From assembly GCA_000004695.1 (NCBI GenBank), contig CM000152.2, positions 4,256,001 to 4,320,000 on the forward strand: 64,000 nt of DNA. Reading direction: 5' to 3'. A program made the position numbers and the translations under genes. The notes beneath the pieces are model-generated. The model did no database searches and was not told the DNA's origin. It was given only the letters and a program-made list of their open reading frames with translations. Below are positions 9,801 through 14,636 of this stretch, in pieces. The stretch is from Dictyostelium discoideum (taxonomy: Eukaryota). Position 1 is the stretch's first letter. The number at the start of each line of letters is the position of its first letter.

Positions 9801-10690
9801 AGTTTCTACTATAAAATAATATTCATTTTTAATAATTTAATTATATTTATTTATTTATTTGTATATATATATTTTATTAATTTATTTATTAATTATTTAA
9901 AAGAGGAGAGAAAAAAAAAAAAAAATTAAAATAAAAAATAAAAAAAAGGTTTGATTTAATATGAGACATTTGAATTTTTTTATTTTTATTTTTATTTTTT
10001 AATTTTTATTTTTTTTTATTTTTTTTTCCTATTGATTTTAATTACCTGACATATCTAGATATTTATAAATTTATTATTATTTAGTTTATTATGTTTGATA
10101 TTGTATTATTATTTTATTTATTATCTAATTTAATTTTAGTTTTTTAAAATCTTTATATTTTTTTTTTTCACTTTTTTATTTTATTTTTATTTTGTAAATG
10201 AACTCAATGAATTTTTTAATTTAATTATAAAAAAAATTATTTGAAAAAAAAAAAAAAAATAAAAAAAAAAAAAAAAAATTGTTTTTTTTTTTTTTCAAAC
10301 AAAATATGCATTATTTTTATTTTTTTTATTTTTTTTTTTTTATTTATTTTCTTTTATTTTATTTTTATATTTCCTTTTTTTTTTACCAAAATAAGAATGA
10401 TAAATGTTTTTTTATTAAACCAATTTAAATTGGCATTTTTTTATTTTAAATGAACAATCTCCATTACAAAAAATAAAATAAATTATCAAAAAAATAATTA
10501 ACCTTCAGTATTCGTCCATCGGTTAAGTTTTATCAATTTTGTCTTATTTATAAAAAATAGAGTTTTTTTTGAATTGGGTACCGAATGGATGAGATCTTAG
10601 GTCACACAGATTTAACCAAACTTTCCTACCCTTGCTTTAAATTATAAAAAATAATTTTAATGTAATATTAAATTTGAAAATATCAAAAAT

Positions 10691-10763
10691 GCCCGGCTAG
10701 CTCAGTCGGTAGAGCGCCAGACTCTTAATCTGGTGGTCGGGGGTTCGAGCCCCCCGTTGGGCG
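10691..10763 (+). tRNA. tRNA-Lys (anticodon CUU)
   Basis: gcccggctagctcagtcggtagagcgccagactCTTaatctggtggtcgggggttcgagccccccgttgggcg. This is 73 nt with a cloverleaf, A-box, B-box (ggttcgagccc) and anticodon loop ct-CTT-aa. It is followed immediately by a T-run (Pol III terminator). Confidence 0.92.
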
Positions 10764-10859
10764 AATTTTTTTCCAATACAACCACTTGTACGAAGTTCGT
10801 ATTTTTGAATGGTATATTAATATGAAAAAAAAAAAAAAAACAATAACAAAATACGTAAT

Positions 10860-12040
10860 TAGAAATCTAAATTAATATTTTTTATTAATAAAGATTTAAA
10901 ATAATTAATTGTATAGTGATGAACCTTCTAAAAATGAAAAGATTTCATATTCCACTCTACCTAATAAATGTTACAAACTAGAATATAAAAAATTAATTAA
11001 CTCTTTCAAAAGATCCCAGCAATTTTAAAGACCTAAACGATTTCTTTAAACATTATATTTAACTTCACTATATTTAAAATTCTGAATTTTGATAATTAAA
11101 TAAAAGGAATACCTACTTGACATTTTATAACTTGTGATGTTTGTGAATTAATAATTAGGTTTATAATCGACTATACATTGATATCAAAGATGCATAATTA
11201 GACTACAATAATATTCATAAAAAATGGTATTTTTTTTTTTTTATATAATCAACAATCTGACGTTTATTTGTTTGAATTTTTGGTGTTTTTGTTGTATCTC
11301 TTTTTGCCAACGAGGTGGATTTGTGGGGTTTATGGGAATTCCAAGTAGATTTAAGCTTTTCTCCAAAATCATGATCGATTTTAACTTCGTTGGTTTTGAT
11401 GGAACTTAGTTATCTCTCTTTTCTCTTTCTTCTTCTTGTATTTTGTAAGAAATACCACGTACTGGATAATTAGCAATACGTCTCATTAAATGGGTACAGA
11501 AACCTTAAATCTTGTTTCTGTACCCATACCTCTAGAGGTTTTGATAAAGAATAATCTTTTATTATTTGGTTTTTAATATTTTTAATTTGTATGATGTATT
11601 TGATTCTGTTACAAATTGGGAGGATGTCTTTTGATGATGCTAATTTAAGAATTATATCATAGTCTAATGTTGTGGCTTGGGTTTTAGTAGAGTTGATTTC
11701 AAATCCATATACATACTTGGTGAAATATCATTGCTATTAAGTTTTTATAGGAGAAATGTCTTGAGAGGTCATAATCTATGGCCTTGTAGCACCATATGAA
11801 GTGTGGTTTATGAAATCTTATATGAATGTAGTCCATGTTGATTTCGTAGTCTTTCTTCATATAAGGATTATTGGTGTGATTTTGTTTTATTGTTTATAAT
11901 CATTCATTCGTGTAACCAGTTAGATTTCCCGCCTGTTGATTTGAAGATGAATCTCGTTAGTTTGGTAGTGTTAATATATGAATATAAATAGCTCAAAATT
12001 TCTGTATCCCAAACTCTGCCTAACCAATTAAAGTATAAAT
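10860..12040. mobile_element. Probable tRNA-associated retroelement fragment (TRE/DRE-type, TRE3-like position). It lies downstream of two convergent tRNA-Lys genes
   Basis: The G/T-rich plus strand is not ordinary gene sequence. It has diverged similarity to 13700..14280 (for example atatcataGtctaatgttgtgg vs atatcataAtctagtgttgtgttg, and catatacatacttggtgaaatatcattgctatta vs catatccatatttggtgaataactaatgagatta). It sits 30-100 bp downstream of tRNA genes, where TRE3 elements integrate. It contains a perfect 13-bp hairpin at about 11485..11522. Confidence 0.3.
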
Positions 12041-12050
12041 AACCATATCT

Positions 12051-12061
12051 GGAATTGAACC
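12051..12061 (-). promoter_or_regulatory. External B-box (exB) about 32 bp downstream of tRNA-Lys(UUU)
   Basis: ggaattgaacc is the reverse complement of GGTTCAATTCC, matching the B-box consensus GGTTCGANTCC. This element is characteristic of Dictyostelium tRNA genes. Confidence 0.6.
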
Positions 12062-12092
12062 TGTGATCTATCTTATACTAAATCTAAAATTT

Positions 12093-12165
12093 CGCCCAAA
12101 GGGGGGCTCGAACCCCCGACCACAAGGTTAAAAGCCTTGCGCTCTACCGACTGAGCTATCTGGGC
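12093..12165 (-). tRNA. tRNA-Lys (anticodon UUU), copy 1
   Basis: The reverse complement reads gcccagatagctcagtcggtagagcgcaaggctTTTaaccttgtggtcgggggttcgagcccccctttgggcg. This is 73 nt with a T-run downstream. Confidence 0.92.
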
Positions 12166-12222
12166 ATTTTTGGAAATTTCGAAATTAAAAACAACTACAG
12201 AACGATTTTTTAAGCCTGGAAG

Positions 12223-12999
12223 TTGTTGCACCACCCAAGAGAGCGAATAACTCTCAAACTAAACCAAGTCAAACCCAAATACGAAAACAAACAAAAATTA
12301 AAAGTAATCTATAGAAACATGATGGATATCAAATACAAGGGATGGAACAAACACCAGCCAACAACAGGTCAAAAACTGATTCAAAAGAACATTAATCACC
12401 CAATTCTACCATTTAGAGAAGCCAGATCAATCACAACTATCAAAGGAAGAGACTTAGCGTGGAGATATCTACTCAAGGCACTTCCAAAACACCATGGGGA
12501 GAATTGTCACTCATGTAAAGAAGAAGAGTCGTCTATGCACATCTTCTTCGAATGCAAATCAATAAAACAGAATATCGACTCAATCTATCAAAAGGTCTGT
12601 AAAGACTCCAACAACACTTACCACGGTCCATGGAGCGAAAAAGTTCTCGGAAAACTACTCACACCATTCTCATCAAATCTGATAGGAGCCATTATGGAAT
12701 CGATATGGTACAGAAGAAATCAAATAAAATTCAACGATAACACTACAATAATAACAGAGAACCAAATAATTCATAAAATCAAAAAAGCGAGAGATGCCGA
12801 ATGGGATAGAACAAGAAAGATAGTAGAAAAGCAACTACGTCAAGAACTAAGATGCACTGATAACCGAGAGTCAATCAATCGGACCGCATCAATAAAAAGA
12901 AGACTCGAAAAATTCAGCCACAACTGGAACTCGAAACTCATGACCATAAACATCCCGGAACACTTCATACCATACTGCTCATATAACACCAACTCATAA
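12223..12999 (+). pseudogene. Truncated retrotransposon ORF2 C-terminal segment (258 codons)
   Basis: The ORF has no upstream start, and the 5' truncation is typical of non-LTR copies. The CCHC-like motif is noted above. Confidence 0.55.
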
Positions 13000-13062
13000 A
13001 AAAAAAAAAAAAAAAAATTATAACAATAATAATAATAATAATAATATAATAATAATAATAAT

Positions 13063-13093
<31 letters not shown>

Positions 13094-13106
13094 TAAGAAT
13101 AACAAG

Positions 13107-13164
<58 letters not shown>

Positions 13165-13190
13165 AAACTCTCCTAGAACACACTCAAATT
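13000..13190 (+). repeat. A-rich / (AAT)n / oligo(A) tract following the ORF2 stop
   Basis: Direct read: a18, then (aat)n, then about a60. Confidence 0.85.
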
Positions 13191-13214
13191 GAGTGATGTT
13201 ATTACGATTTTTTT

Positions 13215-13420
13215 TAACCATCTCTTTTAGAGGCCCTGTAAAAATATTACAAATAAAATGAGATCTAGCATCTCAAGGAGATGCAACTAATAATTGTCTG
13301 ATTAAAAAAATAAAAAAACTAGATTGTTAACACTTACTTTATGAGGCCTAGTAAACTACAAATAAAATGGGACCTAGAATCTACAGGAGAGGCAACTAAA
13401 CATTTCACTATCCAATACAA
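13215..13420. repeat. Two ~100-bp tandem repeat units
   Basis: ttagaggccctgtaaaaatattacaaataaaatgagatctagcatctcaaggagatgcaactaa... is repeated as ttatgaggcctagtaaactacaaataaaatgggacctagaatctacaggagaggcaactaa... Confidence 0.7.
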
Positions 13421-13611
13421 AAAAGGTCGATTTTTAATTTGAATAATAAAATTTCATATTTGAAATGAAAGCGATAGTTGTTTCATTACAGTCACACTAG
13501 AAACAACTTCAATTAATTATTGGAATATAATTGTGTAAATATTTTATGTAAAAATTGATGTTTATGAAATGTTGGATTTAACTTATGTTTAGTTAATGAT
13601 TTAATAAGTTA

Positions 13612-13622
13612 GGAGTTGAACC
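13612..13622 (-). promoter_or_regulatory. Solo exB-like box with the copy-1 downstream flank but no adjacent tRNA
   Basis: ggagttgaacctgtgatctatcttat matches 12051..12076 (ggaattgaacctgtgatctatcttat). The expected tRNA position upstream is occupied by T-rich unrelated sequence. Confidence 0.4.
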
Positions 13623-13639
13623 TGTGATCTATCTTATTT

Positions 13640-14290
13640 TTTTTTTGATATAAATAAACTATTGTAGTATACAATTAGTATGTTATTTTTATTTATTTAT
13701 TTTAGGTTTTTTAGTTTTTGTGAATTTAAAATAGTATGTTATTTTAGATTAGGTAATTAATAATTAATTGGTGGTGTAATTGTTGGAATTGGTTCATTAG
13801 TGTTTATGCTCCATTCTTTTTTAAATTTTTTGATGGTTTCGGACCATTGGGTTTCTTTTTGAGTTTTTGTGAGGTTGTTTTTAATTGAGTATTGGTTAAA
13901 GTTCTTGAATATTCCAATCTTATTAGCTTGTGCCATTTTGATTTTAATATATCATAATCTAGTGTTGTGTTGTTTATTTGGTTGTTCTAATTATCAATTG
14001 ATTGAGTTATATTGATGTCAAATAATGATTTGCATAACCATATCCATATTTGGTGAATAACTAATGAGATTATGTTCCAATATGCATGTGTTCTGACTAG
14101 ATCAAGATTTGTGTTTATATAATTCCAGTTGAACCTGTATTTTTTATATTGTGCGTTTTCTGCAAAATGAAAATTAATATTGATAGTTGGATCTGGTTTA
14201 AATGCTTTGTTGTTTGTTTGTGGTTTATAGATGAGTGTGTATAATTTTGTTGTTTGGTTTTTTGTTAGTGACCAGTTTTTGATAGTGATC
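13640..14290. mobile_element. Second diverged copy of the tRNA-downstream retroelement fragment
   Basis: It is similar to 11600..12040 and ends in gatagtgatctatcttatactaaat(t)taaaatttcg, the same tRNA-downstream flank as copy 1. Confidence 0.3.
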
Positions 14291-14314
14291 TATCTTATAC
14301 TAAATTTAAAATTT

Positions 14315-14387
14315 CGCCCAAAGGGGGGCTCGAACCCCCGACCACAAGGTTAAAAGCCTTGCGCTCTACCGACTGAGCTATCTGGGC
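14315..14387 (-). tRNA. tRNA-Lys (anticodon UUU), copy 2. The mature sequence is identical to copy 1
   Basis: The same 73-nt sequence is present. The shared 3' flank is tgatctatcttatactaaat, but this copy has no exB. Confidence 0.92.
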
Positions 14388-14636
14388 ATATTTGAAAATT
14401 TTAATTTTTTTACAAAATCACATTGATTTTTAATGACAATCGAAAATTTAAAATTTTAAATAAAAATAAAACAAAAGCAATAGAAATCTTTTTTTTTTTA
14501 AAAACAATTCTATCAAGATTTGAATTGAAATTGATTGAGGTATTAACTTCATTCTAAACCTAAAAAAAAAACTTTTTTTTAAATTTTTTTTTTTTTTTAT
14601 TTTTCTATTTTTTTTTAGAAAACACATCGCACCACC

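Follow-up and report, generated by a model that had tools for sequence, protein, structure and literature searches.

In Dictyostelium discoideum, TRE5 retrotransposons insert 44-54 bp upstream of tRNA genes, in the opposite orientation, and TRE3 retrotransposons, which share the orientation of the tRNA and are able to use the external B box (exB), insert 40-150 bp downstream (PMC5911963). The protein encoded by open reading frame 1 (ORF1) of TRE5-A binds TFIIIB, which is positioned by TFIIIC on the B box, and TRE3 uses either the internal or the external B box (PMC5911963, PMC3159450); the latter has the motif GTTCRAnYC (PMC3159450) and, according to the literature, accompanies 66-80% of tRNA genes at a distance of about 41 bp downstream. 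At their 3' ends the TRE5 subfamilies differ: a C-module ends TRE5-A and TRE5-C, not TRE5-B, and a 3' B-module is found in TRE5-A only (PMC3159450). TRE tandems have been described as well (PMC5391098, PMC5006619). The 64,000-nt stretch analyzed here, D. discoideum AX4 chr3:4,256,001-4,320,000 (hereafter the window), contains a cluster of three tRNA-Lys genes, LysCUU-5, LysUUU-10 and LysUUU-9, which has very probably been hit repeatedly by tRNA-targeted TRE retrotransposons of the type that lacks long terminal repeats (non-LTR). A preliminary description, made from the sequence alone, had read the interval as a record of repeated tRNA-targeted retrotransposition; this holds, with TRE5-type elements upstream and head-to-head with the tRNA, and TRE3-type elements downstream in tRNA orientation. 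The locus is already annotated and has been used experimentally, and its arrangement follows what is known of TREs: TRE5 elements sit about 50 bp upstream and TRE3 elements downstream, tandems occur, and the exB is used. Its value is modest, that of a clean worked example in which a perfect target-site duplication (TSD) marks a TRE3-type insertion between a tRNA gene and its exB.

The tRNA genes lie exactly where they had been reported, placed there by ARAGORN and Rfam and by their match to AX4 coordinates:

10691..10763, plus strand: tRNA-Lys(CUU), LysCUU-5
12093..12165, minus strand: tRNA-Lys(UUU) copy 1, LysUUU-10
14315..14387, minus strand: tRNA-Lys(UUU) copy 2, LysUUU-9

Four tRNA positions in the window coincide with AX4 chromosome 3 genes at a single offset of 4,256,000 (S2 table of PMC5391098): LysCUU-5 at 4266691-4266763, LysUUU-10 at 4268093-4268165, LysUUU-9 at 4270315-4270387 and AlaUGC-5 at 4297271-4297366. 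LysUUU-10 and LysUUU-9 receive equal Rfam scores of 72.6 bits, in keeping with their earlier description as alike; at a permissive threshold (E<=1), Rfam gives nothing beyond the three tRNAs. In what follows, comparison loci are labelled L001-L010, and related proteins P0011, P0013 and P0015.

The resemblance of the two UUU genes extends beyond the tRNA: positions 12063-12179 and 14285-14401 are 97% identical, bearing out the shared 3' flank noted before, and the exB with its flank at 12051-12076 matches 13612-13637 at 25/26 positions. What, then, became of the exB of LysUUU-9, which the preliminary description held to be missing? The features that bear on this question are:

12051..12061, minus strand: exB of LysUUU-10, GGTTCAATTCC, 31 nt past the tRNA 3' end
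13612..13622, minus strand: exB assigned to LysUUU-9, GGTTCAACTCC, displaced by the insertion and previously described as a solo exB
13624..13637, unstranded: TSD GTGATCTATCTTAT, exact 14-mer, poly(A) side
13638..14284, minus strand: 5'-truncated TRE3-type element, 647 bp (A11 tail 13638-13648, body 13649-14284)
14285..14298, unstranded: TSD GTGATCTATCTTAT, tRNA side, 17-30 nt past the tRNA 3' end

Read on the tRNA strand, GGTTCAATTCC (12061-12051) and GGTTCAACTCC (13622-13612) both match GTTCRAnYC, so that the box beside copy 1 is canonical, as had been stated. When 13612-13637 is joined directly to 14299-14401, the resulting 129-bp unit is identical to 12051-12179 at 125/129 positions, and its exB is set 31 nt from the tRNA, exactly as in copy 1. 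The "orphan" exB therefore belongs to LysUUU-9, and copy 2 never lost its box. Compared with the Dictyostelium exB in general, the two boxes of the cluster show no difference in kind; one has moved by about 660 bp. The earlier proposal, that local duplication and deletion orphaned the exB at 13612-13640 and that copy 2 has been deprived of its own, could appeal to an exB-like 26-mer standing some 680 bp from the nearest tRNA, but is very improbable: what lies between is one element, poly(A)-tailed and framed by a perfect 14-bp TSD; removing it with one TSD copy restores the unit just described; copies of the element with 97% identity occur at other tRNA loci; and the 14-mer is not part of the element termini, since the TSDs of the L004 and L005 copies differ from it. 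One TRE3-type insertion thus accounts for the displaced exB, and no deletion is needed.

The TSD itself is distinctive. In the 64-kb window GTGATCTATCTTAT occurs at three sites only, 12063 (in the uninterrupted copy 1), 13624 and 14285, and a match at a fixed site would be expected by chance with a probability of about 1e-8. On the minus strand the body of the element ends ...TTTATTTATATC, followed by A11. Its closest relatives are 97.0% identical (L004 5108-5765) and 96.5% identical (L005 5008-5664); both lie downstream of a tRNA gene and in its orientation, the former behind tRNA-Gly(GCC) with the TSD TTCTACGAA, the latter behind tRNA-Thr(AGU) with the TSD ATTCAAAAA. Between its TSDs the L005 copy measures about 4.2 kb; it has a two-ORF non-LTR layout with an RVT_1 gene. 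The translation of 13638-14284 has seven Dictyostelium protein matches, all named "hypothetical protein". The insertion site is 17-30 nt behind LysUUU-9 and 1 nt before the exB, with the element in the orientation of the tRNA; the repeat at about 13640-14290 had indeed been ascribed to the TRE3 position, and its relatives downstream of other tRNAs in the same orientation agree. Poly(A) tails, TSDs, 5' truncation, a reverse transcriptase in longer relatives and a placement tied to the exB are all TRE3-like (subfamilies A-D). Skipper-2 targets the same region (PMC5006619), which might suggest that the downstream repeats are LTR-type elements (Skipper-2 or DGLT-P), likewise inserting downstream of tRNA genes; such an identity is extremely improbable given the poly(A) tails, the 5' truncation, TSDs of 9-14 bp, the lack of LTRs and the two-ORF non-LTR layout, with RVT_1, of the longer L005 copy.

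How did two nearly identical LysUUU units arise? The preliminary description invoked local duplication together with deletion. The deletion of an exB can be dropped, since an insertion with a 14-bp TSD suffices, but duplication of the exB-tRNA segment remains plausible: a unit of exB, 31-nt spacer, tRNA and 14 nt upstream could be a local duplicate older than today's insertions. Gene conversion, or conservation of flanks across the whole family, is a less likely source of the near-identity, though one to be taken seriously, as a LysUUU gene on another chromosome (L003) shares the exB and part of the flank, with 89% identity over 122 nt. Yet the tRNA-exB spacer agrees at 30/31 positions between the local copies and is largely different in L003, and the shared block is short, with unrelated DNA on both sides.

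All three tRNA-Lys genes were hit by tagged TRE5-A in vivo (reads 104/0/25, 5699/158/111 and 8/649/189; PMC5391098). They are therefore live targets of the RNA polymerase III (Pol III) complex, including LysUUU-9 with its displaced exB; that TRE5-A is still drawn to this gene is consistent with its internal B box being sufficient for assembly of the Pol III complex.

Upstream of LysUUU-10, on the opposite strand, lies a TRE5-type insertion:

12202..12211, unstranded: left TSD ACGATTTTTT, 10-mer at the homology boundary
12212..13203, plus strand: 5'-truncated TRE5 element without C-module, defined by homology to L001, L002, L003 and L007
13204..13213, unstranded: right TSD ACGATTTTTT, 10-mer at the homology boundary

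In the 64-kb window ACGATTTTTT has only two sites, 12202 and 13204, which abut both homology boundaries exactly; the element is therefore 12212-13203. It consists of the C-terminus of ORF2 (12223-12999), an A/AAT-rich tract (13000-13156) and a 47-nt hairpin terminus (13157-13203). The retrotransposon ORF2 fragment reported earlier is real: its 258 codons contain no stops and encode a CX2CX7HX4C motif. They are the C-terminal part of an ORF2 that in TRE5 elements has APE, RT and zinc-finger domains. Pfam gives the 258-aa ORF a weak, sub-threshold zf-RVT match only (E 0.89); an exhaustive HMMER search recovers the homologue P0011 (708 aa, 81% identity, E 2e-138), which carries RVT_1, and in P0013 (1056 aa) and P0015 (993 aa), as in P0011, RVT_1 precedes the homologous region. 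Close relatives of the fragment are found in Dictyostelium only, and more distant ones in Tieghemostelium and Cavenderia. Among the matches of the ORF2 fragment and of the TRE3-type translations, a search for a named TRE protein met only "hypothetical protein", and no mention in the literature of the DDB_G identifiers of the protein matches was found.

The oligo(A) run at 13000, earlier taken for the tail of the element, is internal: homology to four other copies passes it, continues through the A/AAT-rich tract and ends only at ...CTCAAATTGAGTGATGTTATT at 13203. Identity over 12212-13203 is 98% to L001, 94% to L003, 84% to L002 and 78% to L007. All five copies, that of the window included, end at GTGATGTTATT, and none has a C-module; the terminus is followed by A12-A18 in L001, L002, L003 and L007, and then by a TSD in L002, L003 and L007. 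At the other end, 46 nt separate the element start (12212) from the tRNA 5' end (12165), rather than the roughly 55 bp first given; in the related copies the gap to tRNA-Glu (L002) and to tRNA-Thr (L007) is 48 nt. With the element on the plus strand and LysUUU-10 on the minus strand, the 5' end of one faces the 5' end of the other, and the elements at L001, L002, L003, L006 and L007 are likewise opposite to their tRNA; the head-to-head TRE5 geometry proposed for copy 1 is thus upheld. The 10-bp TSD and the 5' truncation are, along with an oligo(A) tail, hallmarks of target-primed reverse transcription.

To which TRE5 subfamily does this element belong? The family includes a full-length copy, L007, which matches the TRE5-A A-module at 86% over its first 94 nt, has an ORF1 only 34% identical over 203 aa to the 444-codon TRE5-A-type ORF1, and lacks a B or C module at its 3' end. 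In the absence of a C-module and of a 3' B-module, and with a distinct ORF1, elimination leaves TRE5-B: the family of 12212-13203 is most likely TRE5-B, an assignment that follows from the structural definition and from elimination. The window copy resembles TRE5-B in facing a tRNA gene with its 5' end from 46 bp upstream, in being a non-LTR element with a TSD, in an ORF2 C-terminus with a CCHC knuckle, and in ending without a C-module or 3' B-module. Unlike a full TRE5-B, it comprises the last 1 kb only and has no A-tail. A kinship with TRE5-A is visible in the A-module-like 5' end and the distantly related ORF1, both in the full-length L007 copy. Could 12212-13203 instead be the 3' end of a TRE5-A (or TRE5-C) ORF2, for example one stopped at an ancestral polyadenylation site ahead of the B/C modules? 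The close relationship of TRE5-A and TRE5-B would favour this, as would the view that the C-module was gained by 3' transduction (PMC4559204) and the presence in L001 of a C-module about 330 bp past the element end. This origin is nonetheless improbable: those 330 bp in L001 are not a B-module; the copies in L002, L003 and L007 independently stop at one nucleotide, with an A-run and a TSD behind it; in the window a TSD and no A-run follows that nucleotide, and in L001 an A-run only; the L007 element combines an ORF1 only 34% identical to its TRE5-A-type counterpart with a lack of 3' B/C modules; and the literature defines precisely this architecture as TRE5-B (PMC3159450).

The 3' terminus of the C-module-less TRE5 elements (window 13157-13203) can be folded into an 11-pair hairpin (z = -2.6). 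Aligned with L001 6730-6776, L002 6766-6812, L003 7494-7540, L007 7577-7623 and L006 4896-4943, it is paired in 96.7% of cells across the six copies. There is one compensatory change, U-A to C-G in L007, and one paired insertion in the L006 family; this covariation is not significant, six sequences being too few, and 47-72/500 shuffles do as well. The L006 element (1746-4960) represents a second C-module-less TRE5-type family, with 53% protein identity to the window fragment; it lies upstream of tRNA-Arg(ACG), ends in an analogous hairpin and A17, and its family has 14 cluster members in one strain.

The TRE5-B-like fragment does not stand alone. The preliminary description had recognized TRE5-type debris upstream of LysUUU-10, and a TRE5 insertion is present there, but it missed two further remnants lying beyond it:

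13216..13318, plus strand: TRE5-A-type stub, 88 nt of C-module plus an A7TA7 tail, 82% identity to L003/L001 C-modules
13329..13424, plus strand: older C-module-like stub (TRE5-A or TRE5-C), about 90 nt plus an A6 tail, 66-73% identity to TRE5-A C-modules

The first stub (13216-13303 without its tail) aligns with the terminal modules of L003 and L001 elements that have A-modules, a 444-codon ORF1 and a B-module and are therefore TRE5-A. It contains a 7-bp hairpin, GCAUCUC/GAGAUGC, and lacks the last 6 nt or so. The nucleotides T15, C26, A35 and C38 of the TRE5-A C-module, counted from its 3' end, were mutated in PMC3159450; in the reference modules of L003 and L001 these positions read T, C, A and C, and the outer stub (13329-13418 plus A6) matches 3/4 of them. 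Compared with the 134-137 bp of a TRE5-A C-module, both window copies are cut down to 88 and about 90 nt, with oligo(A) behind them, and the outer one, at its lower identity, could be TRE5-C or an old TRE5-A.

A target motif stands beside each member: ACGATTTTTT at 12202, ACGATTTTTTTT at 13204, CTAGATTGTT in degenerate form at 13319, and TCGATTTTTAA at 13427. The TRE5-B-like fragment and the two C-module stubs make up a TRE5 tandem array, similar in arrangement to published TRE5-TRE5 tandems; divergence grows with distance from LysUUU-10, a gradient that fits repeated insertion at the tRNA-proximal site. A larger array exists at L003 (3589-8111), a locus consistent with AX4 LysUUU-6 / IleAAU-4 on chromosome 1: four TRE5 elements lie upstream of tRNA-Lys(UUU), with the TSD GATCGTTATAT between each element pair. 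The members are a TRE5-A carrying ORF1 and three A-modules in tandem, a probable TRE5-C fragment whose C-module is a variant one, a TRE5-B-like piece and, last, a B-C stub.

Between the convergent LysCUU-5 and LysUUU-10, the preliminary description had placed a single diverged, G/T-rich repeat (10860-12040) at a TRE3 position. The interval is indeed TRE3-type and downstream of tRNA genes, but it is a composite of two convergent fragments:

10825..11230, plus strand: old TRE3-type fragment, 3'-truncated, about 61 nt downstream of LysCUU-5 and in its orientation (bounds approximate)
11231..11243, minus strand: A13 tail (T13 on the plus strand), read from the sequence and tentatively assigned to the minus-strand fragment
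11244..11983, minus strand: diverged 5'-truncated TRE3-type fragment, ORF2 C-terminus and 3' region, in the orientation of LysUUU-10 and 109 nt downstream of it
11984..12050, unstranded: unique spacer of 67 nt beside the exB, without counterpart

G+T content is 43% in 10825-11230 and 60% in 11244-11983. The plus-strand fragment is colinear, at 64% identity, with L002 5732-5231, a segment downstream of tRNA-Glu and oriented like it; part 11160-11229 of the fragment is 75% identical to L008 5331-5406. In the minus-strand fragment, 11540-11988 is 75-82% identical to copies at L008 and L009, downstream of tRNA-Ser and tRNA-Arg in the same orientation, the L009 copy with the TSD CTTCTTTTAT; conceptual translation of 11244-11983 matches five Dictyostelium proteins at E about 1e-35, and "cagattgttgattatat", which precedes the A13 tail, resembles the family 3' end. 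The distances of 109 nt (at 11983) and about 61 nt (at 10825) behind the tRNAs fall inside the published TRE3 window. The minus-strand fragment and the young copy at 13638-14284 share about 33% protein identity, and at least two TRE3 families are therefore present. All three TRE3-type fragments of the window share the orientation of the adjacent tRNA, as do their relatives at L001, L002, L004, L005, L008 and L009.

The boundaries of these fragments were approached in other ways too. AATGGTAT, found at 10808 and 11223, was considered as a TSD of the plus-strand fragment and rejected, since this 8-mer is found 8 times in the window and the related L001 and L008 copies contain "AAAATGGTA" internally. 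A weak tblastn extension would carry the 5' end of the minus-strand fragment to the exB (12050); the DNA alignment with L008 and L009 gives about 11983. The minus-strand copy also has a deletion of about 50 nt (at 11643) at the family position "aaaaatggta", where the plus-strand fragment stops (11230), a shared breakpoint that may be coincidence or the trace of a rearrangement between inverted copies. Within the minus-strand fragment, the segment 11264-11539 has no counterpart in related copies, in the rest of the window or in the fetched loci, and no Rfam match; an inverted repeat with two perfectly matching 12-bp arms, gggtacagaaac / gtttctgtaccc, occupies 11491-11502 / 11517-11528. Two further readings are improbable: that this segment is a small element not described before, or transduced sequence, instead of decayed untranslated region; and that the 47-nt terminal hairpin of the TRE5-B-like fragment, preserved across families by the compensatory change and the paired insertion, is functionally equivalent to the C-module stem-loop, which TRE5-A requires for retrotransposition.

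Several observations weigh against reading the cluster as a series of TRE insertions. Upstream, the TRE5-B-like copy has 0-1 A before its TSD, hence no A-tail, and the TSD of the middle stub (CTAGATTGTT) is degenerate. Downstream, neither of the two older TRE3-type fragments yielded a TSD; the one on the plus strand is without a 3' end; the 276 nt of 11264-11539 are unexplained and call for at least one deletion or rearrangement; and the young copy, at 17-30 nt from LysUUU-9, is closer than the published TRE3 window of 40-150 bp, a placement paralleled by the L005 copy, which likewise lies between tRNA and exB, at 33-41 nt. The subfamily labels derive from structural definitions and elimination. 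Finally, an empty-site allele was looked for and not found: the only other strain examined (GCA_054883475.1) has all insertions.

Sequence anatomy, TSDs, homologies and geometry can be read directly from the DNA. From them we infer the order of events and the subfamily names; the targeting mechanism comes from the literature. TRE elements would recognize the Pol III complex (TFIIIC/TFIIIB) on tRNA genes and insert via target-primed reverse transcription. At LysUUU-10, three TRE5 insertions appear to have used one target site, about 46-48 bp upstream, with their 5' ends facing the tRNA; each newcomer would have entered next to the gene and displaced the older elements outward, so that the target motif CGATTTTT recurs between members. 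The order outward from LysUUU-10 would then be that of increasing age: the young 1-kb TRE5-B-like fragment, the TRE5-A C-module stub and the older C-module stub. On the downstream side, TRE3-type elements would have inserted 109 nt behind LysUUU-10 and about 61 nt behind the convergent LysCUU-5, and a young TRE3-type copy would have landed between LysUUU-9 and its exB, moving the box by about 660 bp and creating an apparent "orphan exB".

In the second D. discoideum assembly (GCA_054883475.1; L010), the interval 9000-15500 is colinear and 99.4% identical, with the three tRNAs present; the arrangement is therefore not an assembly artefact. The LysUUU pair is 24 nt closer there (L010 14487-16759) than in the window (12092-14388), a difference for which the likely cause is that the A/AAT-rich tract of the TRE5 fragment varies in length. 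To the left of the cluster lies coq2, encoding a 4-hydroxybenzoate polyprenyltransferase of the UbiA family, at 7598-8433 and 8521-9076 on the plus strand; its single 87-nt intron is 93% A+T with boundaries GTATGT...AG, and the spliced product is identical to XP_640905.1 of D. discoideum AX4, which together with the four tRNA positions identifies the window as AX4 chromosome 3 DNA.

Two further tRNA-related features were found in the window. The first is a relic near LysCUU-5:

10580..10635, minus strand: decayed tRNA-Leu(UAA) relic, recognized by similarity to the intact tRNA-Leu-UAA in L004

The relic is 93.7% identical to L004 7473-7535 (the intact L004 gene is 7446-7528) and lies 55 bp upstream of LysCUU-5, head-to-head with it. 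It has kept its 5' 56 nt, and its T-arm and B box are degraded to CAATTCAAAAAAAA; it has no ARAGORN call and no Rfam match at E<=1, and is not among the listed AX4 tRNA genes. The second is AlaUGC-5 (41271-41366, minus strand), an intron-containing tRNA gene seen by Rfam and not by ARAGORN. It has an exB, GTTCGATTCCC, some 30 nt downstream (41230-41240), and a C-module-like remnant of about 37 nt, TTCAAGGAGAGCAACTAATAATTGAATTATTCAATTC, some 75 nt upstream (about 41441-41477).

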